Assembly (NCBI GenBank): GCA_965243715.1
Contig: CBDEVU010000007.1
Location: forward strand, 203,480-267,479
Direction of reading: 5' to 3'
Origin: Candidatus Aldehydirespiratoraceae bacterium
Lineage (GTDB): Bacteria > Actinomycetota > Acidimicrobiia > Acidimicrobiales > Aldehydirespiratoraceae
DNA: 64,000 nt
Shown here: positions 13,129 through 46,244 of the stretch, in pieces
How positions within the stretch are numbered: the first letter of the stretch is position 1
Layout: every line of letters starts with the position of its first letter
Notes under the pieces: model-generated
Databases searched by the model: none
What the model saw: the letters and a program-made list of their open reading frames with translations, nothing else
Told to the model about the DNA's origin: nothing
Program-made: the position numbers and the translations under genes

Positions 13129-14414
13129 ACCCGACCTTCACCGACCAAGTCGCCGCGCTGGAAAAGGACTGGTCCGAGAACCCGCGCTGGAGCGGCGTTA
13201 CTCGTGACTACACCGCTGCCGACGTTGTTCGTCTACGCGGCTCGGTTACCCCAGAGCATACGCTGGCCCGTCAAGGGGCGGAAAAGCTGTGGGAGCGTGT
13301 CAATGACATGGACTACGTCCACGCCTTGGGGGCCATGACCGGCGGTCAGGCCATCAACTACGCCAAGGGTGGCCTGCCCGCCATCTACCTATCGGGTTGG
13401 CAGGTCGCGGGCGACGCCAACCTCGCCGGTCAGGTTTACCCCGACCAGTCGCTGTACCCCGTGAACTCGGTACCGTCGGTAGTGGCCCGAATCAACAACG
13501 CCTTGCGCCGAGCCGACCAGATCGAGTGGAGCGAGACCAACGGTTCGCCCAACATCGACTACCTGCTCCCGATCGTCGCCGACGCCGAAGCGGGCTTTGG
13601 CGGTCCACTCAACGCCTACGAACTAATGAAGGCCATGATCGAAGCGGGCGCGGCGGGCGTTCACTGGGAGGATCAACTCAGTTCGGCCAAGAAGTGCGGC
13701 CACATGGGGGGCAAGGTCCTCATCCCCACCCAACAGCACGTGACCACACTCACCGCGGCCCGGTTGGCGGCCGACGTGGCCGACGTACCCACCATCGTGT
13801 TGGCCCGCACCGACGCCCTCGCCGCCAATCTGATCACTACCGACGTCGACGAGAGGGACCAAGAGTTCCTGACCGGGGAGCGCTCCGCCGAAGGCTTCTA
13901 CTACACAGAACCTGGCATCAAGACGCCAATCAAGCGGGCCCTCGCCTACGCCCCCTACTCTGATCTGATCTGGTGCGAGACCGGTACTCCGGACCTAGAG
14001 CAGGCCCGCGAGTTTGCTGAGGCGGTCAAGGCTGAGTTCCCCGATCAGATGCTGAGCTACAACTGCTCGCCCTCGTTCAACTGGAAGGCACATCTCGACG
14101 ACGGCACGATCGCCAAGTTCCAGCGTGAACTCGGAGCGATGGGCTACGCGTTCCAGTTCATCACCCTGGCCGGATGGCATGCCCTGAACGCGTCAGCGTT
14201 CGACCTTGCCCGCGGCTACACCGCCGAAGACATGACCGCCTACGTCGAACTCCAAGAGCGCGAATTCGGCATGGAAGGCGACGGCTACACCGCCACCAAG
14301 CACCAGCGCGAGGTTGGGGCTGGCTACTTCGACAACATTGCGACCATCGTCTCCGGCGGCACCGCATCAACGCTCGCCCTCACCGGCTCCACCGAAGAAG
14401 AGCAATTCCACTAG
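13125..14414 (+). CDS. aceA: isocitrate lyase
   Basis: Carries the signature [12 protein letters not shown] prefer ATG 13125 because AAGGAG lies 7 nt upstream and it forms an ATGA overlap with the aceB stop. The track start 13119 sits too close to the SD. Confidence 0.95.
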
Positions 14415-16406: not shown

Positions 16407-17483
16407 CTAGATTGGATTCGATATGGCCCGCCCTCTTTGAGGAACTCCGGCGATGTCCCCATCCCCCGCGATTTTGTCCACCGCGACAACTCGACCCGTT
16501 GCCGCCGATTCCTTGACCGCGAGGGCACCCGCCAACGCGGCCAAGCCAGCTTCGCCGGTGACCGAAGGGGCGCCGTCCCCCGCAACGGCCAGTCGGAACT
16601 TATCCAATGCTGCGTCGTAGAGGTCGCGCCGGTCAGAAACTTGGATTTCTTCGGTGGATTTACCCACGGTCCGCCACAACGAACCGACCGGGTCCTGCGA
16701 CATAATGTCGACGCCATGGACCGAGGCCTCGGTTCCAATCACGGTGATTGAAGTCGGAGAGTGCTCGACGGTAAACGCGTCGTGCAGTTGTACAAGAACG
16801 TCGCCGAACTGAACCACCGCCATAACGGCGTCCGGCACAGTGAAGTCCGATCCATCGCTCCACTGACCCTGCCGGACAGCGATGGCGGTAGCCGCTGTGG
16901 CGGTCCGTCCGAGGATAGCTTGGATGGCGGACAGGTCGTGTACGGTAATATCAAGAATTACCCCACCCCCCGCCGGATCATCAAGACGCCAGCCGCGGAG
17001 ACGTTCGGGCAAGAGGACGGCGTGTGCGACTCGGACCGCGAGAGGCGTCCCGAGGGATCCCGAAGAAACCAACTTCATGAGCGCTTTGTGAGTGCCCGCG
17101 CCGGGCAGGTGATGATTCGTGGCTAAGACCACTTCGTTGTCGGCGGCCGCCTCGATCATTTTTCTACCGTCGGCCATGGTCAAGGCCAGCGGTTTCTCGC
17201 ACAGGACGTGTTTACCGCTCGTGGCGGCCGCGATGGCCTGCTCCGCATGCAGGTGGTTGGCGCTGCTGATATAGACGGCGTCGATATCAGGGGACGAGCA
17301 AACGTCGCCGATCGCGGCCGTCGACCGCGCAATTCCGTGGGTAGAGGCGAACTGTGCGGCCCATTCGGGAGTGGTGCTCTGTACCACCTCGACCGTGTCG
17401 CCCCCGCGGCGCAGCGCAGGGATCAGCCGTGTGGCCGCTATATCACTTGCTCCAATTAGCGCCCACCGAAGCGATAATTTCAT
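16407..17483 (-). CDS. Gfo/Idh/MocA family NAD(P)-dependent oxidoreductase
   Basis: Starts at the internal Met (MKLSLRWALIGASDIAATRLIPAL, a Rossmann N-terminus). The track start 17543 overlaps the upstream gene. Confidence 0.85.
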   Translation of the reverse strand: MKLSLRWALIGASDIAATRLIPALRRGGDTVEVVQSTTPEWAAQFASTHGIARSTAAIGDVCSSPDIDAVYISSANHLHAEQAIAAATSGKHVLCEKPLALTMADGRKMIEAAADNEVVLATNHHLPGAGTHKALMKLVSSGSLGTPLAVRVAHAVLLPERLRGWRLDDPAGGGVILDITVHDLSAIQAILGRTATAATAIAVRQGQWSDGSDFTVPDAVMAVVQFGDVLVQLHDAFTVEHSPTSITVIGTEASVHGVDIMSQDPVGSLWRTVGKSTEEIQVSDRRDLYDAALDKFRLAVAGDGAPSVTGEAGLAALAGALAVKESAATGRVVAVDKIAGDGDIAGVPQRGRAISNPI

Positions 17484-17511: not shown

Positions 17512-19128
17512 TCACAGAATATCGCCCGCGCGGATGATAGCAACCCCTTTTTCGCCGATCATAATGGATGGAGCCTGAGTATTGCCGCTGATCAACTTCG
17601 GCATCACCGAAGCATCAACCACCCTCAAGCCATTTAGCCCGCGAACTCTAAGACGAGGGTCGACAACTGCGGTCTCTCCGGTACCCATCGAACACGATCC
17701 GACGGGATGATAATCCGTTTTTGACCACTTTCTGATGTAGTTTCTCACCTCCTCGTCGCTGTCAACGCCCAACCCAGGCATGAACTCGTGCTTGATGAAG
17801 GGCGCGAACGCTTCGGACTGCAACAACCGTCGACCCCAGCGAAAGCCCTCTATCGAAACCTTCCAGTCGTGGCCGTCGACGTCGCCGCAAAAGTTTGGGT
17901 CGATGACAGGAGGATCGGCAGGGTCAGGGGAACGAAGCGTGACCGCGCCAATGCTGCGGGGGCGAAGGTTGCACGTATTTATAGTGACGCCATGACCCTT
18001 CTGTCGTTTTCGACCATGATCGATGACGTAGGCAGGTAAGCAGTGGATCTGAATGTCAGGTGACTCAAGACCACCACCGCTGCGGACAAAAGCCCCCGCC
18101 TCGGCGACACACGCGGTCATTGGACCGGTCCGGTAGAGCAGATACTGGATCAGGTGACGGAGGGCTCGATCCGGACGGTCTTCTTGGTTATAAGAGACTG
18201 GTTCGGTCTCGGCCGTCAAGTATACGTCCATATGGTCTTGAAGATTCTGACCCACCCCGGGCAGGTCGTGGACGACGGGAATACCCACGTCAGTAAGGTG
18301 CCCCCCGGGGCCAATACCAGACAAAAGAAGAAGGCGGGGGGTGTTGATCGCCCCCGCGCTCAACACCACTTCGGCCTCGGCCTCCGCTCGTTTTAAGTGG
18401 CGTCCATGCTGATATTCGACGCCGACCGCACGACCGTTAGCGACGATGACCTTAGTCGTGCGGGCTTTGGTAGCCACCGTTAGGTTACGTCGGTGCATAA
18501 CGGGCTTTAGGAAGGCGGTAGCTGCGCTCTCTCGCCGCGCGTCGCGTTGAGTGACGTCATAGAAGGTCACTCCGTCTTGTTGAGCCCCGTTCACATCGGG
18601 GTTGAAATCCAATCCAAGTTCCTGGCCAGCGCGGACGAAGGCCTTGGTCAACGGATTGTGTTGAACTTGCTGGGTGACGCTCATGTCACCCCCTACACCA
18701 TGAAACTCGTTATTGAGTCGACTGTTGTCCTCGGATTTCCGGAAATACGGAAGAACCCCCTCGTAACCCCAACCCGGGTTACCTCGCCGTTCCCACTCGT
18801 CGTAGTCGCTTCGATTACCTCGGATATAGATCATGGCGTTAATCGAGGTCGAACCACCCAGCGTCCGTCCCTGAGGATACCACATCTCCCTGTTGTTCAT
18901 CTGAGCCTGAGGAGCGGTAGAAAACCCCCAGTTGACCTTCTGTGAGGTCAGCTTTGTAAAACCCACCGGAATGTGAATAAGCGGGCTGCGATCCCGTCCT
19001 CCTGCCTCGATCAAGAGTACATTATTGGAAGGGTCTTCGCTGAGTCGGTTGGCGACCACGCAGCCAGCGGCGCCTGCGCCAACAACCACGTAGGTATAGC
19101 GACCGGCAACGATTTCGGCCTTGCTCAT
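17512..19128 (-). CDS. GMC family oxidoreductase (choline-dehydrogenase-like)
   Basis: The real start is MSKAEIVAGRYTYVVVGAGAAGCVVANRLSEDP (ATG 19128). The track's 70-aa N-terminal extension crosses the divergent gene. Confidence 0.88.
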   Translation of the reverse strand: MSKAEIVAGRYTYVVVGAGAAGCVVANRLSEDPSNNVLLIEAGGRDRSPLIHIPVGFTKLTSQKVNWGFSTAPQAQMNNREMWYPQGRTLGGSTSINAMIYIRGNRSDYDEWERRGNPGWGYEGVLPYFRKSEDNSRLNNEFHGVGGDMSVTQQVQHNPLTKAFVRAGQELGLDFNPDVNGAQQDGVTFYDVTQRDARRESAATAFLKPVMHRRNLTVATKARTTKVIVANGRAVGVEYQHGRHLKRAEAEAEVVLSAGAINTPRLLLLSGIGPGGHLTDVGIPVVHDLPGVGQNLQDHMDVYLTAETEPVSYNQEDRPDRALRHLIQYLLYRTGPMTACVAEAGAFVRSGGGLESPDIQIHCLPAYVIDHGRKRQKGHGVTINTCNLRPRSIGAVTLRSPDPADPPVIDPNFCGDVDGHDWKVSIEGFRWGRRLLQSEAFAPFIKHEFMPGLGVDSDEEVRNYIRKWSKTDYHPVGSCSMGTGETAVVDPRLRVRGLNGLRVVDASVMPKLISGNTQAPSIMIGEKGVAIIRAGDIL

Positions 19129-19183
19129 CGGCTCAGATTCTGTACAATAGTCACAGAGCAATTTATACCACAGAAAGCAGCCG

Positions 19184-20695
19184 TTGATCACCCAAAATGC
19201 TGATGTCGTGATCGTAGGAACCGGAATGGGCGGGAGCACCGCCGCTCTTGCGCTGGCCACGACTGGCGCATCCGTTCTCATGCTCGAACGGGGAACTTTC
19301 CTCCCTGTGGAGCCGCAAAACTGGTCACCGATAGCCAACTACACCGATCACCGTTACAAAAATGCCGAGAAGTGGCATACCCCTACCGGTGAAACCTTTA
19401 GCCCTGGCGTCCACTACTACGTAGGCGGTAACACCAAGGTCTTCGGTGCGGCTTTGCCGCGTTGGCGTGCCCATGACTTCGACGAGACCGTACACATCGG
19501 CGGCATCTCGCCAGCGTGGCCAATCTGCTACGCCGAACTCGAGCCGTTCTACGCTCAGGCTGAGGAGATTTACCGAGTCCGCGCCTTAGACGGCGAGGAT
19601 CCTACCGACCCGCCGCGCCGCTCTCCATTCCCCTATCCCGCGGTACCGCACGAACCAACTATCCAACAACTTTCCGACGACATCGCGGCACAAGGACTTC
19701 ATCCAACCCATCTCCCGCTCGGTATCGATTTGCGTCCGCAGGGCCTCTGCATCCGGTGCGGAACCTGTGACGGATATCCCTGCCAGGTGGGAGCAAAAAG
19801 TGACGCCGAAATCTGCGCCGTGCGACCCGCTCTCGAATCGGCGAACGTTGAACTCTGGACTGGGGCCTACGTGGAGCGGCTTCAGATTGGCTCCGGCGGT
19901 CGGCGCGTCACGGCGGTAGTTGGCAGTCGCAACGGTGAACCATTCTCCGTTCGCGCCCACCACGTCGTGGTGGCATGCGGCGCGGCGAACTCCGCCGCAC
20001 TGTTACTGCGATCCGACTCGAGCGATCATCGCCGTGGTCTTGGCAACGACCACGACCAAGTCGGCCGCAACTACATGGTCCACAACAACACGGTCATGGC
20101 GGCTCTCTGCCCGTACCGCAAAAATCCCACCGTATTCCAAAAGACGCTGGCGGTAAACGACTTCTACCTCCCCCGCAACCGAGCTAGCTCGTATCCGCTC
20201 GGCAACCTGCAACTCATCGGCAAAATGCACGAAGGCACCCTCCGAGGCGCCCGACCCCGACTCCCGCTGTTCTTGCGAAACTTCATTACGGCCCGCTCCG
20301 TCGAGTGGTGGGTCATGTCCGAGGACTTACCAGATGCCAACAACCGCGTCTCGCTATCTCCTGCGGGCGGTATCCAGGTTCGGTGGCACGCCACTAACAC
20401 GCAGGCCCATGACCTGCTGCTTCGCCAAGCTAAGAAGATGATGCGCAAAGCTGGCTATCCCCTCATCGCTACCCAAACCATGGGCATCGAGACCAACTCG
20501 CACCAATGTGGGACACTGCGCATGGGCACCGATCGGCACACCTCCGTCGTAGATCCCGATCAGCGGATTCACGGTATCGAAAACGTTCTAGTGGCCGACT
20601 CGTCGGTATTTCCCTCCTCGTCGGCATCCAACCCCGCCCTCACCATCGCCGCTCTCTCGTTACGCGCCATAGACCGGCTTACCAAAGGGTGGTAA
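19184..20695 (+). CDS. GMC-type FAD-dependent oxidoreductase
   Basis: 503 aa with a TTG start, ADVVIVGTGMGGSTAALALA (FAD fold) and the Cys-rich CIRCGTCDGYPC segment common in this subfamily. Confidence 0.83.
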   Translation: MITQNADVVIVGTGMGGSTAALALATTGASVLMLERGTFLPVEPQNWSPIANYTDHRYKNAEKWHTPTGETFSPGVHYYVGGNTKVFGAALPRWRAHDFDETVHIGGISPAWPICYAELEPFYAQAEEIYRVRALDGEDPTDPPRRSPFPYPAVPHEPTIQQLSDDIAAQGLHPTHLPLGIDLRPQGLCIRCGTCDGYPCQVGAKSDAEICAVRPALESANVELWTGAYVERLQIGSGGRRVTAVVGSRNGEPFSVRAHHVVVACGAANSAALLLRSDSSDHRRGLGNDHDQVGRNYMVHNNTVMAALCPYRKNPTVFQKTLAVNDFYLPRNRASSYPLGNLQLIGKMHEGTLRGARPRLPLFLRNFITARSVEWWVMSEDLPDANNRVSLSPAGGIQVRWHATNTQAHDLLLRQAKKMMRKAGYPLIATQTMGIETNSHQCGTLRMGTDRHTSVVDPDQRIHGIENVLVADSSVFPSSSASNPALTIAALSLRAIDRLTKGW

Positions 20696-20737: not shown

Positions 20738-21574
20738 TCACTTTACTGATCCGGCCACTAGTCCACGAACAAAGTACTTACCGAGCACAACGTACACCAG
20801 CGCGGTCGGGGCGGCGGCGATCAAGGCCCCCGCCATCACTACATTCCACTGGATTGACAGACTTCCCGATAGATTATTTAGGGCCACCGTGATGGGTTGC
20901 TTAGAGGGATCAGGAATCACGGTGATGCCGAATATGAAATCATTCCAAATATTGGTGAACTGAAATATTCCGGCCACCACAAACCCAGGTAACGACAACG
21001 GCAGCATCAGACGGGTGAATATCTGGGTTGTTGTTGCCCCATCGACCTGGGCCGCCTCTAGGATCTCATCGGGTATCTGGGCGTAGTAGTTCCGAAAGAT
21101 CAACATCGTGATAGGGATGCCGTAGATGACGTGGACCATAATCAGCCCCGTATGTGTGCCGTAGAGGTTGAAGTACTGCAGGAAGCGGACGATGGGGATC
21201 AGAACGACCTGGTACGGAATGAACATTCCGAGGAGTAATGCGGCAAAAATGCTGTTACTGCCGCGAAAGGGCAACTTCGCGAACACGAAGCCGTTAAGGG
21301 CACCAATAATCGACGACAGTACCACCGCCGGGATGACGATGATCAGACTGTTCTTGAAGTTCGAACCAACTTCATCCCACGCTTCGCGCAGACCGCCAAA
21401 ACTCACTGACTCTGGTAGTTGCCACATGTAAAGGGCGTCGGCTTGGTTGGGCGGTTTCAGGCTCGCCATGACCATGACGTATACAGGTATGAGGAAAATT
21501 ATGGCAAGTATTGTTAGGGCCATGAGTCCCGGAAGTCGCGTCTTGCTGTACGCGGCCGGTTCCGTTGCGCTCAC
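20738..21574 (-). CDS. carbohydrate ABC transporter permease (MalG-like, CUT1)
   Basis: The track ORF (405 aa) is over-extended. GTG 21574 overlaps the upstream stop as GTGA and leaves a 279-aa six-TM permease. Confidence 0.87.
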   Translation of the reverse strand: MSATEPAAYSKTRLPGLMALTILAIIFLIPVYVMVMASLKPPNQADALYMWQLPESVSFGGLREAWDEVGSNFKNSLIIVIPAVVLSSIIGALNGFVFAKLPFRGSNSIFAALLLGMFIPYQVVLIPIVRFLQYFNLYGTHTGLIMVHVIYGIPITMLIFRNYYAQIPDEILEAAQVDGATTTQIFTRLMLPLSLPGFVVAGIFQFTNIWNDFIFGITVIPDPSKQPITVALNNLSGSLSIQWNVVMAGALIAAAPTALVYVVLGKYFVRGLVAGSVK

Positions 21575-22593
21575 GCTTTCGATCCTAGGTAAGTCCGGTA
21601 CAGGTACGGGACTATCACGATGGCGACGAGCAGTAACATGACCATTGATGCGGCCGCCCCCGTATTGAACCTGAGCGAGCGAAAGGTCTGTTCGAAAACG
21701 TAGATGCCCGGCACGTCGGTAGCGAACCCCGGTCCCCGCCCCGACATCGCAACTACTAAGTCGAAACTCTTGAGACTCACATGACCCAGAATCACTAGCA
21801 CCGTCACCAACATGGGGCCAAGATGAGGTAAAGCTATGTACCGGTAGTATTGGTGGCTCTTGGCCCCGTCCAACGCCGCGGCCTCCGACAGTTCTTCGGG
21901 GATAGTCGCTAGACCGGCGAGGAAGATTGCCATAGCAAACCCGGCCAGTTGCCATGATGCCGCGATGACTACCGGGATTAGCGCCAACGGGATCCCGAGT
22001 TGAGTGTTAATGAACGGACCGCCCGGAACAATTGCCTCCAACGCCGCCGAGAGGTCTCCAACCACCGTAGGGTCAGTGATCCAACCAGGGCGGGCATCGA
22101 TTCCTATTACCTCGAGAATGCGGTTAGCGCCCGTAGAAGGTGTAAATATCCACCGCCACACTACGCCCGTGATGATGAACGACAGTGAGTACGGAAATAA
22201 GAAGACCCCTCGAAAGAACCCCCTGGAACGCAAGGTATTGTGGACTAATACCGCTAGGACGAATCCGAGCACTACGGCGAGGCCCAAGAAAAGCACGGTG
22301 AATACCGTGATATTTCGCAGGTCGGCCTGAAAGCGCGGCGACCTGAGCATGTCGGCATAGGTTTCGAGCAGTGGATCATGGGGTTGGAGATTGATGGTTA
22401 ATCCCTCCCACTGAGAGACAGAAACCGTTGCGGTATAGGCGATGAAACCGTAAATAAATAGGCCCAGCACCACCAAAGTTGGGACCGTCACCGCAAACCT
22501 GAAGCCGTTACGGGCCCAGAATCCATTCCGACGGGGTCTGACCATCGTTTCGCGTGAGATCCCTAGGGATTTGGCGGAGGTTGCGGTTGCCAT
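21571..22593 (-). CDS. carbohydrate ABC transporter permease (MalF-like, CUT1)
   Basis: ATG 22593 is preceded by GAGGAG with a 7-nt spacer. The product is a multi-TM protein with the EAA-loop region EELSEAAALDGA. Confidence 0.87.
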   Translation of the reverse strand: MATATSAKSLGISRETMVRPRRNGFWARNGFRFAVTVPTLVVLGLFIYGFIAYTATVSVSQWEGLTINLQPHDPLLETYADMLRSPRFQADLRNITVFTVLFLGLAVVLGFVLAVLVHNTLRSRGFFRGVFLFPYSLSFIITGVVWRWIFTPSTGANRILEVIGIDARPGWITDPTVVGDLSAALEAIVPGGPFINTQLGIPLALIPVVIAASWQLAGFAMAIFLAGLATIPEELSEAAALDGAKSHQYYRYIALPHLGPMLVTVLVILGHVSLKSFDLVVAMSGRGPGFATDVPGIYVFEQTFRSLRFNTGAAASMVMLLLVAIVIVPYLYRTYLGSKA

Positions 22594-22677
22594 CGGGTTA
22601 CTCCTCGTGGCCGCTACTGCCCGAACCGGCCTCGGCTGATCCTCGTGAGGGGCCGAGGCCGGGGGTGACAAGTCGTG

Positions 22678-24018
22678 CTAGCCTTGGGCTAGAGCGCTAA
22701 TGAACGCATCAACATTCTGGTCTTGCGCGAAAACGGTCACCGCCTCCGACATCGCCGTCTGAAAGCCAGGTTCGCCGTGATGAACGATCGACAAGGCGGT
22801 GGCGTCACTTCCCAGCGCCATCGCCGCGCCCTGCTGATAGCGAGGCAACGACGACACGTCGACGTCAGTACGTACCGGACTTGAACCCTTGGCCAGGTTA
22901 AACGCCAACTGTGTTTCCGGCTGTCCCATCTCTGCCAGCCAAACCTTGACTAGCTCCCAGTTCGGCGTGTCCTTGGCCACCACGAATGCGTCGACCACCA
23001 GCATGAAGATGCCGTCGGTGCCGGGATGATTGACGTAACCAAACCCCTCGTTGTCAACCGCGCCGGAGTTGACTAGTTCACCGTAGGCCCAGTCCCCCAT
23101 GCTGTTGAAGGCGCAACCATCGTCGGCCAACCGCAGAATTGCCTGATCCCATGTCAATGCGCTGGCGTCTGGATCAACGAAGGCCAATATGGCGGCGAAG
23201 TGTTCGGCAGCTTGGCGGACCTCTGGGTCGTCCCAGGAACGAGCACCGTCTCGAAGATCGGCCCACCCATCGGCTCCAACGAAACCTAACAGCGCGTTCT
23301 CAAAGAGTTCGTCGACCGCGAAGGCTTGGTTGGCGCCCAAGCAAAGCGGGATGATCCCTGCCGCGTCGAGGGTGGCCAGATCGTCAATAAACTGCTGGGC
23401 GCTGTAGTCGCCCTCCGGGGCGGCCACGCCCGCCTGTTCCAGCAAGGCCACGTTGTACCAGAGGTTGTTGCCCCGATGAGCGCCGGTCGCGACGGCATAG
23501 ATCTCACCGTCGGAGGTCAAAGACTCGATCAAGCCCGCGGGCATTACGTCCCGAAACCCGTTCTCGTCGTAAACTTCGGTCACTGGGCGGACGACATCGG
23601 CTTCCAAGTACGGCGTCAAACGCCCACCGGGACCAGATTGCCAAGTATCGGGAAGGTCATTGCCCTGAATCCTCGTCGCCAACACCGCTTGAGCGTTGGC
23701 CCCGCCGCCGCCGGCAACAGCTCCGTTGAGAATGTCCGCGTCCGGAGCACCGGACTGAAACGCCGAGATCAGCGACTGAAGCGCGGTGTCTTCGGAACCC
23801 GACGTCCACCAGCTAAAGATCTCCAGTTCACCGGTCAACCCATCGCCGGTGGCAGCTTCGTCAGGGGCGTCGGCTCCCTCGGCCGGTTCAGCGACGGAAC
23901 CGTCAGCGTCGTCGTCATCGCCACACGCGGCGGCGATCAAGGAAAAGGCCGCCAATACGGCCAGTAGTCGGCCCATTGAGAGCCATCTTTTATTTGAATA
24001 TTTTGAAGAACCAGTCAT
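22678..24018 (-). CDS. extracellular solute-binding lipoprotein (family 1, sugar ABC)
   Basis: ATG 24018 is preceded by GAGGAGGA with an 8-nt spacer. The signal and lipobox read ...LLAVLAAFSLIAAAC GDDDD. No ATPase gene is adjacent, which is typical of CUT1 systems that use a shared MsiK-type ATPase. Confidence 0.87.
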   Translation of the reverse strand: MTGSSKYSNKRWLSMGRLLAVLAAFSLIAAACGDDDDADGSVAEPAEGADAPDEAATGDGLTGELEIFSWWTSGSEDTALQSLISAFQSGAPDADILNGAVAGGGGANAQAVLATRIQGNDLPDTWQSGPGGRLTPYLEADVVRPVTEVYDENGFRDVMPAGLIESLTSDGEIYAVATGAHRGNNLWYNVALLEQAGVAAPEGDYSAQQFIDDLATLDAAGIIPLCLGANQAFAVDELFENALLGFVGADGWADLRDGARSWDDPEVRQAAEHFAAILAFVDPDASALTWDQAILRLADDGCAFNSMGDWAYGELVNSGAVDNEGFGYVNHPGTDGIFMLVVDAFVVAKDTPNWELVKVWLAEMGQPETQLAFNLAKGSSPVRTDVDVSSLPRYQQGAAMALGSDATALSIVHHGEPGFQTAMSEAVTVFAQDQNVDAFISALAQG

Positions 24019-24040
24019 TGCTAGTTTCCTCCTCATTAGT

Positions 24041-24104
24041 TGTTCATTGCGGTGTTTGTTCATTGCATTGTTTGTTCATTGCATTTGTTGTTGATTGCCC
24101 TTGG
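24041..24104. repeat. four tandem 16-bp repeats (TGTTCATTGC core)
   Basis: TGTTCATTGC occurs at 24041, 24057 and 24073, and TGTTGATTGC at 24089, an exact 16-bp period. The array lies in the AT-rich gap between the GH88 stop and the SBP start. Confidence 0.85.
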
Positions 24105-24107
24105 GCG

Positions 24108-25250
24108 CTAGCTCTCGGTCGATACCCACCTCCCCCCTAGGCACTTGTCCAGCGCTTCGACAAAGAAGTACTCGCCCCACATCACGCTCTCGTCCACGCC
24201 CAAGCCCAACCGTTCGTGGTAGGAGCCGTGCTTCAAGATTCCCTCCCACTGCGGGTCATCGGAGGCCAAGAAATCGCTGCTACAGAGGCGACGGATTATC
24301 CCGAACGCGTAGTCCCGATAACGACACGCGATCGGCGCGTCGTCAGAGAGTGCAGCCAACTGCAGCAAGCCGCTGGCGGTGATCGCGGCAGCAGAGGATT
24401 CAGTTTTGACGATCGGGTGGGGCTCATCCCAGTCGTTAGGCGGAACGTTTACATCCCCCGTCCGCTCGATGAAGTAATCCGCGGCGGCCTGGGCAGTCTC
24501 GAGATACTCCGGCACGCCGGTGAAGGCATACATCGTGCCAAAGCCGTACAGCGCCCACGCCTGGCCCCGGGCCCAACTCGAATCCGACCGCCAACCCTGC
24601 TGCGTGCTCTGGCGGAGGAACTCGCCGCTGGCGGGGTCGAAGATTCCTTCGTGGGCGGTACTCCCGTCACCTCGTAGGAGATGACGGCGGGTATTCATGC
24701 AGTGTCGTTCGACGATGGCGGCCAACTCGCCGTCGCCGTCGCGTTCGGCGGCGTACTGAATGATGCCGACGTTCATCATGATGTCGATAAACGTCGAATC
24801 CGGCGCAAGGAACGAACGCAAGAAACCCGCTCGCTCGTCGAACCGTAGCGCCATAGTCCGACCCGCCTGCACGACGACCTCGTCGACTTTGACGTCGCCG
24901 CTCAGCCGAAACCACCTCCGCCAAGTCGGCCAGAACGTGAACCCGAGGTCGTGTACGTTACGGTCAAACTCACGGCCCCGCAGCGCTTCGGAGTACTCCA
25001 CGGCACTATCTCGCCAACGCGACTCTTGGGTTTGTTCGGCGAAAATCCAAAGCTGCCCGCCCAGAAATCCCTCACACCAATTAGTCCAAGCAGGCGAAGT
25101 GTGATTCCACCGACCGTTCTGGGTGACGAGCGGAAAGAGCCCCGGGTGCTTCTTGATAAGAGCGCCAACCTTCAACTGTGCCACACAAAGAGCCGTTTGG
25201 GCGTCGGCGGTCACCTCGGCGGGCACACGGAAAAGTTCGTTCGTCGTCAT
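24108..25250 (-). CDS. glycoside hydrolase family 88 (unsaturated glucuronyl hydrolase-like)
   Basis: 380 aa with WCEGFLGGQLWIF, HDLGFTFWPTW and WARGQAWALYGF, which match the GH88/GH105 (alpha/alpha)6 motifs. Confidence 0.82.
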   Translation of the reverse strand: MTTNELFRVPAEVTADAQTALCVAQLKVGALIKKHPGLFPLVTQNGRWNHTSPAWTNWCEGFLGGQLWIFAEQTQESRWRDSAVEYSEALRGREFDRNVHDLGFTFWPTWRRWFRLSGDVKVDEVVVQAGRTMALRFDERAGFLRSFLAPDSTFIDIMMNVGIIQYAAERDGDGELAAIVERHCMNTRRHLLRGDGSTAHEGIFDPASGEFLRQSTQQGWRSDSSWARGQAWALYGFGTMYAFTGVPEYLETAQAAADYFIERTGDVNVPPNDWDEPHPIVKTESSAAAITASGLLQLAALSDDAPIACRYRDYAFGIIRRLCSSDFLASDDPQWEGILKHGSYHERLGLGVDESVMWGEYFFVEALDKCLGGRWVSTES

Positions 25251-26023
25251 CGGGCGGTGAACCTCGGAGGCCGTTTCTCAACGAAGGCTGCCATTGCCTC
25301 GGCTAAGTCTTTGGTAGTGGACAGCAACGATCCGGCGAGCATCTCCAAGGCCTGCGATGCCGACAGTTCCTGGTCAAGGGCGCCCAGCACGACCTTCGCT
25401 ACTTCCTGGGCTAACGGTGCCGGGGTGGTGAGATCGTGGACGTAGCGAGCGACCAACTCGGCAAAATCGAGGGGTTGGGCTACTTCGTTGACTAGACCCC
25501 AACTCGCCGCGGTGGTCGCGTCGAGGGGGCGCCCAGTCAGGATCAGTTGGCGCGCTCGAACCGAGCCGATGGCATTGATCAAACGAGCGGTGCCACCCCA
25601 GCCGGGGACGGTACCTACGCTGACCTCCGGGTGGCCGAAGGTGGCCGCCGGTGTCGCCAGGCGGATGTCGCAGGCCAAGGCCAACTCCAATCCTCCCCCC
25701 AGCGCGGGGCCGTCGACGACAGCCAGGGTCGGCCGAGAGAAGGTAGCCAGCCGGGCGAACGTACGATGACCTGCCTCGACCCAAATTCGGCGCATCGACT
25801 CGCGTGTCTGCTGGGCGAACAAGGTCAGGTCGGCACCGACGCTGAACGCTCTCCCCCGGCCTGCCACGATGAGCACACCGACGTCATCGCGGCTTTCGAG
25901 ATCACCGACCAGGTGCTCGATGTCGGCCAGCATTCCCGGGGTCAGGGCATTGAGTTTCTCATCGCGCTGGAGTTCTAATCGGGCCACGCCGTCGACCACC
26001 TCGCAGCTCACGTAGTCGCTCAT
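25247..26023 (-). CDS. enoyl-CoA hydratase/isomerase (crotonase) family protein
   Basis: 258 aa with the crotonase fold (...AGRGRAFSVGADL...GPALGGGLELALACD...). Forms an ATGA overlap with GH88. Confidence 0.87.
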   Translation of the reverse strand: MSDYVSCEVVDGVARLELQRDEKLNALTPGMLADIEHLVGDLESRDDVGVLIVAGRGRAFSVGADLTLFAQQTRESMRRIWVEAGHRTFARLATFSRPTLAVVDGPALGGGLELALACDIRLATPAATFGHPEVSVGTVPGWGGTARLINAIGSVRARQLILTGRPLDATTAASWGLVNEVAQPLDFAELVARYVHDLTTPAPLAQEVAKVVLGALDQELSASQALEMLAGSLLSTTKDLAEAMAAFVEKRPPRFTAR

Positions 26024-26037
26024 GAGATCAACCCGCG

Positions 26038-26112
26038 TTGGATAACCCAGTATTGGATAACCCAGTATTGGATTACCCAGTGTCGGATTACCGTGTCTTG
26101 GATCGATCTAAA
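26038..26112. repeat. five tandem 15-bp repeats (TTGGATAACCCAGTA family)
   Basis: Units: TTGGATAACCCAGTA (26038, 26053), TTGGATTACCCAGTG (26068), TCGGATTACCGTGTC (26083) and TTGGATCGATCTAAA (26098). The last unit is the first operator-like site. Confidence 0.88.
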
Positions 26113-26133
26113 GTGAGGGCCTGGATCGATCCA
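26099..26133. promoter_or_regulatory. two operator-like palindromes upstream of the crotonase-GH88 unit
   Basis: TGGATCGATCTA (26099-26110) and TGGATCGATCCA (26122-26133). Confidence 0.55.
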
Positions 26134-26158
26134 AATCATGACCCGAAAGATGTGGCGC

Positions 26159-27754
26159 TTAGCCATCGGCAGGCTCCTGGAAGAGAGACGTCGCCATCAA
26201 CCGCACGTCGTTGGCGACGAGTAGTTTGACCTCGGCGCAGCCTAAGATGTCGCGTTCGAGGTCGATCCCCGGCGCGATTTCTGTCACCACCAACCCCTCC
26301 GGACGCAGCCGAATCACACAACGTTCGGTTACGTAGATAACCTCGGCACCGCGTTCGAGGGCCCGACGACCGCTGAAGGACACTTGGTCCACGTCCGGCA
26401 CGAACTTGGGTTTTCCTGCATTCGACTCGATCGCTAGTTGACCATTACCCACCACTAGGCCGTTATTTCCGGCCATGAAGGTGCCCACGAAGATCAGTTT
26501 GGAGGCCGCTTCGGTGATGTCGGCAAAGCCACCGATCCCTGCCGAGACGTGACTGCGACCAGCCAACCGCGACACATTGACGTTGCCGAACTGATCGACC
26601 TGCATGAACGACAAACACGCCGCGTCGCATCCGCCCCCCTGCAACAGCGTGAATTGACTAGGCGCGGGGAGCACTGCGTCAGGGTTCAACGCACACCCGA
26701 ATCCCGGACCGGTTACCGGGAATCCGCCGACCGCTCCCTGCTCGGTCACCCAGGTAACGTGGTCGCCGCGACCTTCCTCGTGAAATACCCGGGGAATGCC
26801 CGAACATATGCCAAAGCCGAGGTTCACAATCCAGCCTTGCTTCAGTTCGCCACTGGCTCGGCGGGCAAGTACTTTCTCGATTCCCCACGGGAGCGGTTCG
26901 ATATGATCAACGGGGCCCATGATCTCCCCCGACAGCACCGGGTCGTAGCGGATCTCGGTCGTTTGCATCTGGTCCGGTACCACAACAACTGCGTCCACGA
27001 TTGCTCCGGGAACCCTGACTCCTTGCGCCGCCAGGCTGCCCGCTTGTGCGAGGCGCTTGACTTGAGCGACGACGATTCCGCCGTTGTTGTGGGTGGCGAG
27101 TGCTTGTTCGAGGATTCCCAGCGGCGCGCCCTCGTGTTCAGTAGTAATATTTCCGTGCGTGTCGGCGGTAGTACCGCGAATCAGGGCTACATCGGGGCAC
27201 AGCGGCGGGTAGTGCAACCACTCTTCGCCAGCGAACGTAACGACCTGGACCAAATCGCGGGGCGTGACATCGTTCAGCGCTCCACCTGCGCGTCGAGGGT
27301 CAACAAAAGTGTCGAGGCCGATCTTGGTGAGCACGCCGGGTTGATGCGTTGCCCCCGCCGCGTGCATCTGAAAGAGCACTCCGCTGGGCAGATTCCAAGC
27401 CGCAACCCGGTTTTCGTCGATCATGGTCCGAATCCGGGGCGGGGCCAATGACGAGGGTCCACTGGGAAAGGAGCCCGCCAGAACTTGGCGCAGTAGTCCA
27501 TCGCGGGCGAGGTGGTCGATGCCACGGATCCCGAACATGTCGCCCGCGGCAATCGGGTTGATCACGGTTAGATCAGCAGGTGAACCGGTTTCACCGAAGG
27601 CATCGCCGAGGACGGCCAGCAAACGGTCAGGACAAGCCAACCCTGACGATGCACTCACCGACACCGTCGCGCCGGGGCGAACTAGTCTCGAAACGGCCGC
27701 CGGGTCGAGAACGGGTACCGTCTTGCCCTGGCGTACCGGCCGCTCATAGTTCAT
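26159..27754 (-). CDS. acyl-CoA:acetate/3-ketoacid CoA-transferase family protein (YdiF/Pct-like, fused alpha-beta)
   Basis: Starts MNYERPVRQGK (ATG 27754), forming an ATGA overlap with the LacI stop. Carries the family-I catalytic Glu context WVTEQGAVGGFP. Confidence 0.82.
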   Translation of the reverse strand: MNYERPVRQGKTVPVLDPAAVSRLVRPGATVSVSASSGLACPDRLLAVLGDAFGETGSPADLTVINPIAAGDMFGIRGIDHLARDGLLRQVLAGSFPSGPSSLAPPRIRTMIDENRVAAWNLPSGVLFQMHAAGATHQPGVLTKIGLDTFVDPRRAGGALNDVTPRDLVQVVTFAGEEWLHYPPLCPDVALIRGTTADTHGNITTEHEGAPLGILEQALATHNNGGIVVAQVKRLAQAGSLAAQGVRVPGAIVDAVVVVPDQMQTTEIRYDPVLSGEIMGPVDHIEPLPWGIEKVLARRASGELKQGWIVNLGFGICSGIPRVFHEEGRGDHVTWVTEQGAVGGFPVTGPGFGCALNPDAVLPAPSQFTLLQGGGCDAACLSFMQVDQFGNVNVSRLAGRSHVSAGIGGFADITEAASKLIFVGTFMAGNNGLVVGNGQLAIESNAGKPKFVPDVDQVSFSGRRALERGAEVIYVTERCVIRLRPEGLVVTEIAPGIDLERDILGCAEVKLLVANDVRLMATSLFQEPADG

Positions 27755-28818
27755 GTCGAAGCCACCGAGAGAGGGCAGCCGCAACTGCGCCGGACCTGCA
27801 GTGACGAAAAAACGATGCGATCTTGAGGGGCGACCACATCGCCGCGGTCTATCAAAGCGACGAGCATTTCCGCCGCGGCCCGCCCGATCTCCTTGGCGGC
27901 GACTCGAACGGTAGATAAAGGGGGTTGTTCGAATTGAGCGGCTTCAATATCGTCAAACCCCATCAAGAGTGCGTCCTTGCCTACCGTCACTTCGCGGGCC
28001 CGTAGCGCTGACGCGACCCCGAGGGCCACGACATCGTTGTAGGCGAACACCGCTGTTGGTTGGGCGGGCAACGTGTCCCAAAACGACCACGCTGTGTCGT
28101 AGGCGTCGGGGCGAGAGACGGCGGAGGACAAGGTAATTAGCTCCTCGGGATCACGACCCGCGGCTACCAGACCTGCCCGCAAACCCTTGCATCGTTCCAG
28201 GTACGGCGATCCGCTCGCCCATCCACCAATAAAGACGAAAGAGGCGGGCTGGTGTACTGAAGCCATATGGTAGGCGGCTTCGTAAGCGCCCTGAGTGTTG
28301 TCCGACCCGACATAACTGGCGGTGGCGGCGTCCACCCGTCGAGAGCACAAAACGATCGGTATCCCGGCCGCGGTCAAGCGGTCCAGAGCCGGGGCGGTCG
28401 AACCGTGGGCTGCGGTCACGATCACGCCATCAACTCCTGCCTCCATCAAGCGATTGAACAAGGCGTCTTGGGCAGCAATGTCCTCGGAGTGTTGCCCTAG
28501 AATTGCGGTTCTCCCTGTCACCGAAATTGTGGACTCGATGCCATCGACTACCTCGGCGAAGAACGGGTTTCTCACCGTGGTCACCACCACGCCAACCGAA
28601 CCCGTCCTTTGTGCTCGCAGACTCGATGCCGCTCGGTTGTAGACATAACCAAACTCTTCGAAGGCCTTGAGGACTTTGGCTCGTGTCTCATCGGCGACAA
28701 GGGGGCTACCGCGTAACACCAAACTGGCCGTTGATCTAGAAACTCCGACCGCGGCCGCGACATCAGCTAACCGAACCCGTTTACGGCTGGCCGTGTCCTC
28801 GGCCTGCGGATTTTTCAC
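27751..28818 (-). CDS. LacI-family transcriptional regulator
   Basis: HTH VRLADVAAAVGVSRSTASLVLRG followed by a periplasmic-binding-fold core. I prefer GTG 28818 (GAGG lies 7 nt upstream). The track start 28956 would place a promoter and the palindrome inside the ORF. Confidence 0.84.
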   Translation of the reverse strand: MKNPQAEDTASRKRVRLADVAAAVGVSRSTASLVLRGSPLVADETRAKVLKAFEEFGYVYNRAASSLRAQRTGSVGVVVTTVRNPFFAEVVDGIESTISVTGRTAILGQHSEDIAAQDALFNRLMEAGVDGVIVTAAHGSTAPALDRLTAAGIPIVLCSRRVDAATASYVGSDNTQGAYEAAYHMASVHQPASFVFIGGWASGSPYLERCKGLRAGLVAAGRDPEELITLSSAVSRPDAYDTAWSFWDTLPAQPTAVFAYNDVVALGVASALRAREVTVGKDALLMGFDDIEAAQFEQPPLSTVRVAAKEIGRAAAEMLVALIDRGDVVAPQDRIVFSSLQVRRSCGCPLSVAST

Positions 28819-28836
28819 TACTCGACCTCGCCTTCT

Positions 28837-28850
28837 TTGGATCGATCCAA
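28837..28850. promoter_or_regulatory. perfect 14-bp palindrome TTGGATCGATCCAA (putative LacI operator, autoregulatory)
   Basis: Read directly. It abuts the -10 of the promoter below and lies 19 nt upstream of GTG 28818. Confidence 0.6.
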
Positions 28851-28878
28851 GGTTAGGAGCCATGGTGTGGGATGTCAA
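28850..28878 (-). promoter_or_regulatory. putative promoter of the lacI/CoA-transferase unit
   Basis: On the minus strand: TTGACA (28878-28873), a 17-nt spacer, then TAACCT (28855-28850). Confidence 0.5.
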
Positions 28879-28942
28879 GGATCTCCGTCGGGGTAAAACT
28901 GTGCGAGCCGGAACTCTGAGAGTCTTTACTCTCAACATTTCG

Positions 28943-30043
28943 TTAGCGGGTAACACGGGCTCCCCTTGCCTCGACCGCGGCGAGCACCTCGGCGGCGGTC
29001 ATCATCGACGTGTCGCCAGGGGTTGTCATCACCAACGCGCCGTGAGCCGCTCCGATCTCCACCGCCTCCGCCGGGGTGCGCCCTTCGATCAAACTCCATA
29101 TCGTGCCCGACGCAAAACCGTCGCCGCCACCCACGCGGTCAAACACCTCGAGACCGTCACGAGTGCGGGCCTCGTAGAACTCTCCGCCTGCGCAGAGCAC
29201 AGCGCTCCAGTCGTTAGTAGTGGCCGTTGACGCCGTCCTCAGGCTCGTACCGACAACGACAAGGTTGGGAAAGGCAGCAATAACGTCGTTTATCATTGCC
29301 TTGAAAGCAGAAGTGTCGATCTCGGAGATGTCGTCATCGAGTTCTTCGACTCGAAAACCAAGCGCCGCGGTGAAATCCTCCTCGTTGCCAAACATTACGT
29401 CCACCAACGAAGCGAGTCGCCGGTTCACCGCAACCGCCTTAGATTGGCCGCCACGAGAGGCCCACAGCGACGGGCGATAGTTCAAGTCGTAGGAGACGAT
29501 TGTCCCCGCCGCTCGGGCTGCCTGAATTGCTTCGAGCGCCACGTCGGCCGTAGTTTCCGACAAAGCGGCGAAAATGCCCCCCGTATGCATCCACCGGACC
29601 CCCTCCACTTCGAAAATCTGCTGCCAGTCGATGTCCCCCACCCGCAACTGCGATACCGCTGTGTTGCTGCGGTCGCTCACCCCTAGGGCGGGCCGGAGCC
29701 CATACCCCTTCTCGGTAAAGTTCAGCCCGACCCGACCCGCCTGGCCCGTACCGTCATGGGGAATCCACCGGACGTGGCGTAGGTCAACGCCGCCCGCCAT
29801 TATGAGGTCCTCAAGGAGACGGCCTACCTCGTGATCGACGAGACTCGTCACGATGGCGGTGCGAAGACCAAACACCTTCCGTAGGGCTCGGGCGACATTG
29901 TATTCGCCGCCACCTTCACTCACACGAAACGTCCTCGTAGTCCGCACTCGACCCCATTCCGGGTCAAGCCGCAGCATTACTTCGCCCAAGCTGAGACAAT
30001 CCCACCTACAGTCTTGGCGGCTCAAGATATTGAGCCCGCTCAC
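28943..30043 (-). CDS. kdgK: PfkB-family sugar kinase (2-dehydro-3-deoxygluconokinase-like)
   Basis: 366 aa with CLSLGEVMLRLDP...GGGEYNVARAL and a C-terminal ...GGGDGFASG motif. Forms a GTGA overlap with the eda stop. Confidence 0.82.
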   Translation of the reverse strand: MSGLNILSRQDCRWDCLSLGEVMLRLDPEWGRVRTTRTFRVSEGGGEYNVARALRKVFGLRTAIVTSLVDHEVGRLLEDLIMAGGVDLRHVRWIPHDGTGQAGRVGLNFTEKGYGLRPALGVSDRSNTAVSQLRVGDIDWQQIFEVEGVRWMHTGGIFAALSETTADVALEAIQAARAAGTIVSYDLNYRPSLWASRGGQSKAVAVNRRLASLVDVMFGNEEDFTAALGFRVEELDDDISEIDTSAFKAMINDVIAAFPNLVVVGTSLRTASTATTNDWSAVLCAGGEFYEARTRDGLEVFDRVGGGDGFASGTIWSLIEGRTPAEAVEIGAAHGALVMTTPGDTSMMTAAEVLAAVEARGARVTR

Positions 30044-30717
30044 GCCGCGTCTCCGTTACGAGCGACCGATACCGACTGCACCGCCGCTGTCAAAGCATCG
30101 CCTACAGCCAGCCAATCACGCTTCGCTATGTGTGTGGGCGAAAAGAGTTTCGAGCCCATACCAACCGCGGGCGCGCCTGCCTGATACCACGCTGCCAGCG
30201 ATTCTACGGTGGGCTCCACTCCGCCGGTCGGGATCGCCTCCACCCACGGACAGGGCGCTCGAACGGCGGCGAGGAAGGCCGGGCCGCCCAACGCTTCCGC
30301 GGGAAATAGCTTCACCATGTGGCACCCGAGATCGTAGGCCGTCTGAATCTCGGTCAACGTTGCACATCCGGGAACGTACAGCACCCCCTGACGAGCACAC
30401 GCTCGGCTAACATCGACCCCAAGCGAGGGAGCAAACACGAAGCTCGCCCCCGCGCCGATTACCCGGGCCGCGGTGGGTGCGTCGGTTACCGTTCCTACTC
30501 CGATGGCCACCTCGGGAAGTTCGAGGCGACCCCACGAGAGAAGTTCCACGACAAGATCAAGCGCACCAGGGCCACGGTTGGTGAACTCCAGGCAGGACAG
30601 ACCACTTGACGCCACCAGGCGCGCTAGTTCTTTGGCTATCTCCAAGTCCCCCACGGAACAGACAGGGACCAAGCCGTCGCTTTTCATCCTCGCCACGACC
30701 TCATCCGCTCTCAACAT
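30040..30717 (-). CDS. eda: KDPG / KHG aldolase
   Basis: 225 aa in the Eda/DgoA family (...CLEFTNRGPGA...VGTV...VKLFPA...). AGGAG lies 5 nt upstream of ATG 30717. Confidence 0.86.
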   Translation of the reverse strand: MLRADEVVARMKSDGLVPVCSVGDLEIAKELARLVASSGLSCLEFTNRGPGALDLVVELLSWGRLELPEVAIGVGTVTDAPTAARVIGAGASFVFAPSLGVDVSRACARQGVLYVPGCATLTEIQTAYDLGCHMVKLFPAEALGGPAFLAAVRAPCPWVEAIPTGGVEPTVESLAAWYQAGAPAVGMGSKLFSPTHIAKRDWLAVGDALTAAVQSVSVARNGDAA

Positions 30718-30731
30718 TTACACTCCTGTTT

Positions 30732-30756
30732 TGGATCGATCTAATGGATCGATCTA
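30732..30756. promoter_or_regulatory. two back-to-back operator-like sites TGGATCGATCTA
   Basis: Located at 30732-30743 and 30745-30756, between the promoter below and the eda SD. Confidence 0.55.
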
Positions 30757-44269: not shown

Positions 44270-44275
44270 TGGCGG

Positions 44276-46242: not shown

Positions 46243-46244
46243 GG

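Follow-up and report, generated by a model that had tools for sequence, protein, structure and literature searches.

The locus described here lies in a 64,000-nucleotide (64-kb) stretch of contig CBDEVU010000007.1 from a Candidatus Aldehydirespiratoraceae bacterium (Acidimicrobiia), referred to below as the window. It combines a divergent member of glycoside hydrolase family 88 (GH88) with a coenzyme A (CoA)-transferase, a crotonase, and the kinase and aldolase that consume 2-keto-3-deoxy-D-gluconate (KDG), and it is the actinobacterial (Acidimicrobiia) form of a widespread operon holding the known gene for 1,5-anhydro-D-fructose reductase (AFR). The CoA-transferase and the crotonase probably act upstream of GH88, opening a ring-locked sugar straight to KDG. 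Judged from the sequences, the most likely substrate is 1,5-anhydro-D-glucitol, 1,5-anhydro-D-fructose or 1,5-anhydro-D-mannitol. The specific scheme, a CoA-dependent route that would feed GH88 and yield KDG directly, probably from 1,5-anhydrohexitols, is given a probability of about 0.45; that the CoA enzymes act before KDG is considered more likely than that.

Gene content and regulation of the locus

As the original prediction had stated, intact genes for Eda, a KdgK-like kinase, a LacI-family regulator, the CoA-transferase, the crotonase, GH88 and an importer of the CUT1 family are found on the minus strand. Eda, an aldolase for 2-keto-3-deoxy-6-phosphogluconate (KDPG) and 2-keto-4-hydroxyglutarate (KHG), occupies positions 30040-30717 (PF01081, E = 1.8e-36; NF005499, 225 bits). 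It is followed by a PfkB-family, KdgK-like sugar-acid kinase (28943-30043; PF00294), whose top NCBIfam models are the KHG/KDPG-aldolase/kinase fusion (NF041633, 264 bits) and the KDG/2-keto-3-deoxygalactonate kinase (NF041332, 134 bits). The LacI-family repressor, with its helix-turn-helix (HTH) and Peripla_BP domains, runs from 27751 to about 28818; its start, judged from the sequence that follows the operator, is probably the GTG at 28818. Then come a fused family-I CoA-transferase of the YdiF/propionate CoA-transferase type (26159-27754), the crotonase-family hydratase/dehydratase (25247-26023), GH88 (24108-25250), a CUT1 solute-binding protein (22678-24023) and two permeases of the ATP-binding cassette (ABC) importer (21571-22671, BPD_transp_1, GlcT-like; and 20738-21574, GlcU-like, with a GTG start that overlaps the stop of the first). 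The functional unit proved to be longer than first noted. It extends down to 16407 and thereby takes in two flavoenzymes of the GMC family, GMC1 on the plus strand (19184-20695) and the choline-dehydrogenase-like GMC2 on the minus strand (17512-19128, ATG start at 19128), together with an AFR homologue of the Gfo/Idh/MocA family, also on the minus strand (16407-17483, ATG start at 17483).

The LacI protein is proposed to govern both the eda-kinase-lacI-CoA-transferase genes and the crotonase-GH88-transporter genes through a predicted TGGATCGATCCA operator. Allowing at most one mismatch, this motif occurs at five sites (26099, 26122, 28838, 30732 and 30745) where 0.12 would be expected, a count reached in none of 100 shuffles, and all five sites are confined to three promoter regions; the shared operator motif claimed earlier was thus upheld. 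Upstream of eda, at 30732-30756, there is an operator pair consisting of TGGATCGATCTA twice, a 13-bp tandem in 2 copies, each with 1 mismatch to TGGATCGATCCA. The motif scan placed a perfect TGGATCGATCCA palindrome at 28838-28849, ahead of the LacI gene, and a second pair at 26099-26133, ahead of the crotonase-GH88-transporter operon, in which 26099-26110 has 1 mismatch and 26122-26133 is perfect. Translational coupling could be read directly from the sequence, as had been claimed: an ATGA overlap at 27751-27754 joins the LacI stop to the CoA-transferase start, and another at 25247-25250 forms a clean junction between the crotonase stop and the GH88 start. GTGA overlaps were also seen at Eda/PfkB kinase and at permease 1/permease 2.

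Neither a KduI/DhuI isomerase nor a KduD/DhuD reductase of the short-chain dehydrogenase/reductase (SDR) family was found in the cluster between 16.4 and 30.7 kb, where the intergenic gaps are at most about 135 bp and leave no room for a further coding sequence. Across the whole window, none of the scanned open reading frames (ORFs) of at least 180 amino acids encoded a cupin, an RpiB-type protein or an SDR, and no polysaccharide lyase or sulfatase was present either. The description of the locus as non-canonical and KduI/KduD-less therefore stands.

Some non-coding features were noted in the same region. Two tandem arrays lie in 5' leaders, one of 4.4 copies of TTGGATAACCCAGTA at 26038-26103, in the stretch from the operator pair to the crotonase start, and one of 3.7 copies of TTGTTCATTGCATTGT at 24040-24098, just upstream of the binding-protein start. 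No LacI operator is found in the 55-bp divergent spacer between GMC1 and GMC2 (19129-19183), which does contain an imperfect CTGT...ACAG palindrome; the SorC-type regulator that relatives encode at this place is missing from the window.

Conserved residues, gene neighbourhoods and the Sinorhizobium afr operon

The CoA-transferase aligned with the Escherichia coli YdiF structure 2ahu across residues 5-529, over the fused alpha/beta domains (E = 2.6e-111), and its catalytic Glu338 (Glu338-Gln-Gly, EQG) was invariant among 103 relatives. For the crotonase (PF00378, E = 6.7e-44) the closest solved relative was the 3-hydroxypropionyl-CoA dehydratase 5zai, and its nearest kin are short-chain hydratases/dehydratases. 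Its catalytic Glu113 and Glu133 were invariant among 108 relatives, the oxyanion-hole residues Gly63 and Gly110-111 are conserved, and Trp142, which we take to be specific to this family, stands in place of the usual Ala of canonical enzymes. On the basis of these homologies it is proposed that the CoA-transferase would activate a sugar acid as its thioester and recycle CoA from the product, and that the crotonase would strip a uronyl-CoA of its C4 hydroxyl and C5 proton.

The match of GH88 to Pfam PF07470 was marginal (29.9 bits with a cut-off of 26.6). The protein aligned end to end with the Bacillus unsaturated glucuronyl hydrolase (UGL) 1vd5 (E = 1.8e-50; residues 32-370 against 17-364) and keeps equivalents of UGL Asp88, Asp149, His193, Gln211, Trp219, Arg221, Trp225 and Tyr338, while at the subsites UGL Trp47, Trp134, Asn213 and Thr214 are changed to Leu, Phe, Trp and Arg. 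The catalytic Asp101 and Asp156 and the carboxylate-binding Gln218 and Arg228 of the window protein were invariant in 64 relatives of group a and 19 of group b, both groups being about 31% identical to Bacillus UGL. No signal peptide was apparent by eye. Since the catalytic Asp pair and the carboxylate-binding Gln/Arg are kept, GH88 is proposed to expect a free 4,5-unsaturated uronate ring, held in a uniform, uronate-type binding site. Enzymes of this family act by hydrating the C4=C5 vinyl ether and a glycosidic bond is therefore not required.

The AFR homologue aligned over its full length with 2glx (E = 1e-80), conserves the LIGAS-IA nucleotide motif, the EKP lysine and ILDITVHD, and has 45% identity with the product of the S. 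meliloti AFR gene. The reduction of 1,5-anhydrofructose by AFR enzymes uses NADPH and gives 1,5-anhydromannitol. GMC1 has the N and C domains of its family (6a2u, E = 3.4e-36) and is conserved beside the transporter in relatives; its kin are the catalytic subunits of FAD glucose dehydrogenase and fructose dehydrogenase, which are secondary-alcohol sugar dehydrogenases, and it may oxidise a secondary alcohol at C2. The closest solved relatives of GMC2 (PRK02106, 593 bits) are chloramphenicol oxidase 8b7s (E = 5e-117), choline dehydrogenase and alcohol oxidases. GMC2-like enzymes oxidise primary alcohols, some of them as far as the acid, and the C6 primary alcohol is the proposed target here. 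The GlcS-like solute-binding protein is of the glucose/galactose-binding type and matched the Thermus glucose/galactose-binding protein 2b3b (E = 1.3e-56) and the Pseudomonas sugar-binding protein 5dvf (E = 1.1e-33). Because these are glucose-type proteins, the imported molecule is expected to be glucose-sized and not an oligosaccharide. The original prediction had assumed import of an unsaturated glycosaminoglycan, ulvan or gellan oligosaccharide. That premise was rejected because the binding protein is of the glucose type, because no lyase or sulfatase is found in the window and because the AFR-containing module to which the CoA pair belongs is found elsewhere without GH88.

Gene neighbourhoods were surveyed from both sides. 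The CoA-transferase survey took one genome per species and gave 80 loci at 52-68% identity, of which the 52 loci of at least 19 kb were used to count neighbours. A crotonase was near the CoA-transferase in 48/52 loci, an aldehyde dehydrogenase (ALDH) in 37, a CUT1 binding protein in 34, an AFR-like gene in 31, GMC1 in 30, GMC2 in 23, an SDR in 21, a DUF993 protein in 19, GH88 in 14 and a GMC protein fused to a gluconate-2-dehydrogenase small subunit in 8. GH88 never co-occurred with a KduD-like SDR or DUF993 (0/52). Counted over all 80 species loci, GH88 lay beside the CoA-transferase in 24. The clusters came from Actinomycetota, Chloroflexota, Verrucomicrobiota, Rhodothermales and Proteobacteria, the GH88-bearing forms from the first three. 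The GH88 survey took the 80 closest metagenome relatives (55-65% identity) and gave 66 informative loci; a crotonase, ALDH or CoA-transferase lay directly upstream of GH88 in 40 of them. The linkage of the CoA genes with GH88 and KdgK/Eda that the original prediction had asked to see confirmed is thus present beyond this genome.

The nearest named relatives belong to Acidimicrobiales and include the sponge-associated Ca. Poriferisodalis. Relatives at 59-79% identity have the same cluster, at times rearranged, and the linkage survives rearrangement, as shown by two loci with the same genes in a different order (L006 and L007). An ALDH is often inserted between the crotonase and GH88 in these relatives, with 4-bp overlaps; this order was seen in L007 and in the 79%-identical relative L001 (ALDH at 12430-13929), and most other clusters also have the ALDH.

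Several variants were recorded in the course of the surveys. A fusion of about 750 amino acids, joining a PF13618 gluconate-2-dehydrogenase small-subunit domain to a GMC flavoprotein, lies between the CoA-transferase and the crotonase at L010, L012, L031, L051, L053 and other loci and replaces GMC2 in Arthrobacter, Thermomicrobiales and Verrucomicrobiota. The CoA pair also occurs with an electron-transfer flavoprotein (ETF) and a xylose-isomerase-like TIM barrel in loci of Rhodococcus and Kaistia. A 27-kb 'plasmid' record labelled Escherichia coli (L171, NZ_CP048308.1) carries sucC, lpdA, odhB, dnaB and alr by a LacI gene, the CoA-transferase and the crotonase, and looks like a chromosomal fragment. 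A second non-canonical type of GH88 cluster was also seen, in which GH88, an SDR and an old yellow enzyme (OYE)-like FMN oxidoreductase of about 480 amino acids are followed by KdgK and Eda, again without KduI (L100, L112, L114, L125, L126, L130, L135, L151, L157 and L162). In other clusters again the CoA pair is accompanied by acyl-CoA dehydrogenase, ETF, an SDR, DUF993 and glycerate kinase, from which a more general function as a CoA-dependent sugar-acid dehydratase may be suspected.

The link to a known enzyme came from plasmid records, where tblastn detected the module in many Sinorhizobium and Rhizobium replicons. The annotated AFR gene of S. meliloti Ak57 matched the crystallised AFR 4koa with 725.9 bits over 333 residues, so that the two are essentially identical. 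The operon around it (L088) has the order LacI-AFR-CoA-transferase-crotonase-ALDH-binding protein-two permeases-ATPase-GMC-SDR-GMC-glycerate kinase, with a divergent DUF993 gene upstream. Compared with their equivalents there, the proteins of the window show 39-54% identity, and the afr-type set (AFR, CoA-transferase, crotonase, two GMC enzymes, CUT1 ABC proteins and LacI) is complete in the window between 16407 and 28818. AFR reduces anhydrofructose to anhydromannitol in Rhizobiaceae (PMC12441222). For the aerobic fate of 1,5-anhydromannitol a 2025 review records a proposed C-1 hydroxylation by a still unidentified enzyme, and it states that no oxidative 1,5-anhydroglucitol pathway has been described, the anaerobic glycyl-radical route being the only other one known (PMC12441222). 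The S. meliloti gene smc04396 is reported to be dextrin-induced (PMC4960864); its place in the order of locus tags, which matches the L088 operon, suggests that it encodes the binding protein of the afr operon. SMc04390-04392 are annotated as a sorbose dehydrogenase, an SDR and a dehydrogenase (PMC12542648).

Two further replicons and two other parts of the window may be mentioned. A paralogous cluster on pSymA of S. meliloti 1021 (L089, 3361-19941) has neither AFR nor GH88; its order is CUT2 ABC, zinc alcohol dehydrogenase, ALDH, GMC, aldo-keto reductase, CoA-transferase, crotonase, glycerate kinase (DUF4147/MOFRL), aldo-keto reductase, acyl-CoA dehydrogenase, SDR and DUF993. Roseibium porphyridii, from the red microalga Porphyridium, has a 49-kb plasmid with AFR-like, CoA-transferase, crotonase, ALDH, ABC and GMC genes (L170); red algae are known to yield 1,5-anhydrofructose. 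Elsewhere in the window, malate synthase and isocitrate lyase of the glyoxylate shunt (11506-14414 and 9913-11382) lie beside an HTH/M78-peptidase regulator, and a second sugar-type cluster at 43526-50848 encodes ROK proteins, a CUT2-like ABC system, a YhfX-like protein of the pyridoxal-phosphate enzyme fold and an M20 peptidase.

Proposed route and competing explanations

In the proposed route the glucose-type ABC system would import a 1,5-anhydro sugar, GMC1 would oxidise it at C2 and the AFR homologue would re-reduce it to the manno configuration. GMC2 would take the C6 alcohol to the carboxylate, a step at which ALDH may help in most relatives, not in the window. The YdiF-type CoA-transferase would then form a uronyl-CoA, which would be a 3-hydroxyacyl-CoA because the C4 hydroxyl is beta and the C5 proton alpha to the thioester. 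Dehydration across C4-C5 by the crotonase would give a 4,5-unsaturated cyclic enol ether, and the transferase would pass the CoA to the next substrate molecule. GH88 would add water at C5 and the resulting hemiketal would open; with CH2OH rather than an acetal at C1, the product would be KDG itself. From KDG the PfkB kinase and Eda would finally yield pyruvate and glyceraldehyde 3-phosphate. Neither KduI nor KduD would be required, because there would be no C1 aldehyde to isomerise and reduce. We infer that this one scheme can give every gene of the unit a role. Parts of the chemistry have parallels, since the 4-deoxy-L-erythro-5-hexoseulose uronate (DEH) derived from alginate has the C2/C3 configuration of mannuronate and gives KDG upon reduction at C1, and since cycles of a CoA-transferase and a dehydratase are known, for example CaiB/CaiD. 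A CoA-dependent route of this kind was not described in the literature searched, whether for GH88 with CoA-transferase and crotonase or for anhydrofructose with CoA or KDG, and nothing pertinent was found there on DUF993, Poriferisodalis or the catabolism of 4-O-methylglucuronate. That the inert tetrahydropyran ring of 1,5-anhydrohexitols is opened aerobically via C6 oxidation, a CoA thioester, 4,5-dehydration and a GH88 etherase to give KDG is put forward as a tentative conclusion.

A number of observations weigh against this scheme. We know of no GH88 enzyme that accepts a substrate of manno configuration or one lacking an aglycone, and the literature searched contained no report of a uronyl-CoA. 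Gene families, catalytic residues and linkage were observed directly, but the substrate is deduced from one characterised gene and homology. The region of GMC1, GMC2 and the AFR homologue has no LacI operator, only 3-mismatch matches at chance level, and ALDH is missing from the window although most relatives have one. The Ca. Poriferisodalis locus L003 retains the CoA-transferase, GH88, kinase and Eda but has an unrelated 71-residue ORF (11605-11820) in place of the crotonase, of which tblastn detected no remnant there. The clusters of Proteobacteria and Rhodothermales have SDR and DUF993 instead of GH88, and therefore either the ring is opened differently there or a linear acid is the substrate. 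Conversely, 20 of the 66 GH88 loci lack the CoA genes and have SDR, the OYE-like oxidoreductase, KdgK and Eda downstream together with IclR/GntR regulators (a further 6 loci show neither context). No alignment column discriminated the GH88 proteins of the CoA clusters from those of the SDR/OYE clusters (62% identity both within group a and between groups a and b), and since the two groups are inseparable this GH88 subfamily is not dedicated to a CoA route. Finally, C-1 oxygenation has been reported to turn 1,5-anhydromannitol into mannose (Kuhn et al. 2006, as cited in PMC12441222), and the proposed scheme does not account for this published intermediate.

The alternative that survives best, although we consider it unlikely, retains the same chemistry but changes the substrate. 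An ordinary glycoside or a 4-O-substituted uronide would be imported, its C6 oxidised where needed, and the CoA thioester and the crotonase would eliminate the C4 substituent or hydroxyl to make an unsaturated uronide without a lyase, from which GH88 would free the aglycone. The gene linkage expected is identical to that of the anhydrohexitol scheme, the uronate-binding site of GH88 is normal, and the dispensability of ALDH in several lineages fits substrates that arrive already as acids. [quoted passage not shown] The monosaccharide-type binding protein and the link to AFR, which indicates a 1,5-anhydro sugar, also argue against it.

Less probable again is that the CoA pair constitutes a CoA-dependent aldonate dehydratase, turning a linear aldonyl-CoA (from mannonate or gluconate made by GMC1 out of an imported hexose) into KDG, with GH88 serving a separate, co-regulated substrate. 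This would agree with the glucose-type binding protein, the resemblance of GMC1 to FAD glucose dehydrogenase, the clusters without GH88, the recurrence of the CoA pair with DUF993, SDR and glycerate kinase elsewhere, and the reported mannose intermediate (PMC12441222). It provides no role for GH88, GMC2, ALDH and AFR, which are the most tightly coupled partners. We give only a small chance to the view that the genes are functionally separate, with GH88 acting on lyase-derived uronides supported by kduI/kduD elsewhere and the CoA pair acting on 3-hydroxypropionate, lactate, acrylate or an aglycone. The best solved relatives of both CoA enzymes do use short-chain acyl-CoAs, this GH88 subfamily is found also in uronate-type contexts, and the search for KduI and KduD was confined to the 64-kb window; nevertheless, translational coupling to LacI and to GH88, a shared operator, and linkage kept across phyla despite rearrangement speak against independent functions.

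The first of the explanations offered by the original prediction, that the CoA enzymes stand in for the KduI/KduD steps after GH88, is the least likely of all: KdgK and Eda are present and no GH88-bearing locus among the 52 also had a KduD-like SDR or DUF993, as a substitution by the CoA genes would predict, but no chemically reasonable CoA-dependent route from the keto-aldehyde to KDG was found, the CoA pair is widespread without GH88 and alongside AFR, the importer is of the glucose type with no lyase near, and the GMC enzymes and ALDH are left without explanation. What stood of that interpretation is a non-canonical, KduI/KduD-less locus with linked CoA genes, and what fell is its oligosaccharide premise. 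Two other candidates were tried and rejected. Acyl substituents (3-hydroxybutanoyl, lactyl) as the CoA substrate would require an esterase, of which there is none, and leave AFR, the GMC enzymes and ALDH unexplained; for oxidation of the GH88 product by ALDH to 5-keto-4-deoxyglucarate, followed by CoA chemistry, no sensible continuation was found, and ALDH is absent here.

Significance and comparison with known systems

1,5-Anhydroglucitol and 1,5-anhydrofructose are widespread, arising from starch and glycogen via glucan lyases and occurring in plants, algae and human blood. To our knowledge the aerobic bacterial breaking of the 1,5-anhydro ring has been an open question since 2006, with AFR the sole known enzyme. 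The conserved cluster provides a concrete list of enzymes for such a breakdown. If the anhydrohexitol scheme is true, the steps lacking after AFR in the anhydrofructose pathway of rhizobia would be identified, the first uronyl-CoA intermediate would bring CoA thioester chemistry into sugar-ring catabolism, and GH88 would gain a new role as a hydratase on non-glycosides. Counts of GH88 genes in genomes, including those of sponge symbionts, would then no longer be an automatic sign of glycosaminoglycan degradation. An oxygen-tolerant enzyme degrading 1,5-anhydroglucitol would have medical use according to the 2025 review (PMC12441222).

The canonical unsaturated-uronate pathway of Bacillus, Streptococcus and enterobacteria has the same GH88 Asp pair and carboxylate-binding residues as the window and the same ending with KDG kinase and KDPG aldolase. 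The window differs in having no isomerase, reductase, lyase, or importer of the oligosaccharide or phosphotransferase system (PTS) type; it has instead a CoA-transferase, a crotonase, two GMC flavoenzymes and an AFR homologue. The alginate route also passes through manno-configured 4,5-unsaturated uronate chemistry and ends in KDG without KduI/KduD, as proposed here. It employs lyases and a DEH reductase, whereas in the proposed route the C1 alcohol would already be present, no reductase would be needed and the double bond would be made by the crotonase on a thioester. In the CaiB/CaiD carnitine cycle, too, a hydroxy acid is activated by a transferase and dehydrated as its thioester by a crotonase-type enzyme, after which the CoA goes to the next substrate molecule. 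The likeness is in logic only, since CaiB is a family III transferase and the window enzyme is of family I (YdiF type), and for a sugar acid, the substrate proposed for the window, no precedent was found.

The levoglucosan (LgdA/B/C) and 3-keto-glycoside lyase pathways serve the same purpose, in that a redox step makes an acidic C-H and an unhydrolysable C-O bond is broken by elimination and hydration. They rely on C3 oxidation and xylose-isomerase-like lyases without CoA, while the proposed route would rely on C6 oxidation and a thioester. The anaerobic 1,5-anhydroglucitol pathway addresses the same proposed class of substrate and has no component in common with the window; it uses a PTS and the glycyl-radical enzymes YbiW/PflD, is oxygen-sensitive, and proceeds through phosphorylated intermediates to 1-deoxyfructose 6-phosphate (Ma et al., as cited in PMC12441222). 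The afr locus of Sinorhizobium morelense and S. meliloti, in which AFR is the sole characterised member (structures 2glx and 4koa), shares AFR, the CoA-transferase, the crotonase, both GMC enzymes, the CUT1 ABC system and LacI with the window. ALDH, SDR, DUF993 and glycerate kinase belong to the rhizobial operon, which is without GH88, KdgK and Eda, whereas the window, without ALDH, SDR and DUF993, has GH88, the PfkB/KdgK kinase and Eda.

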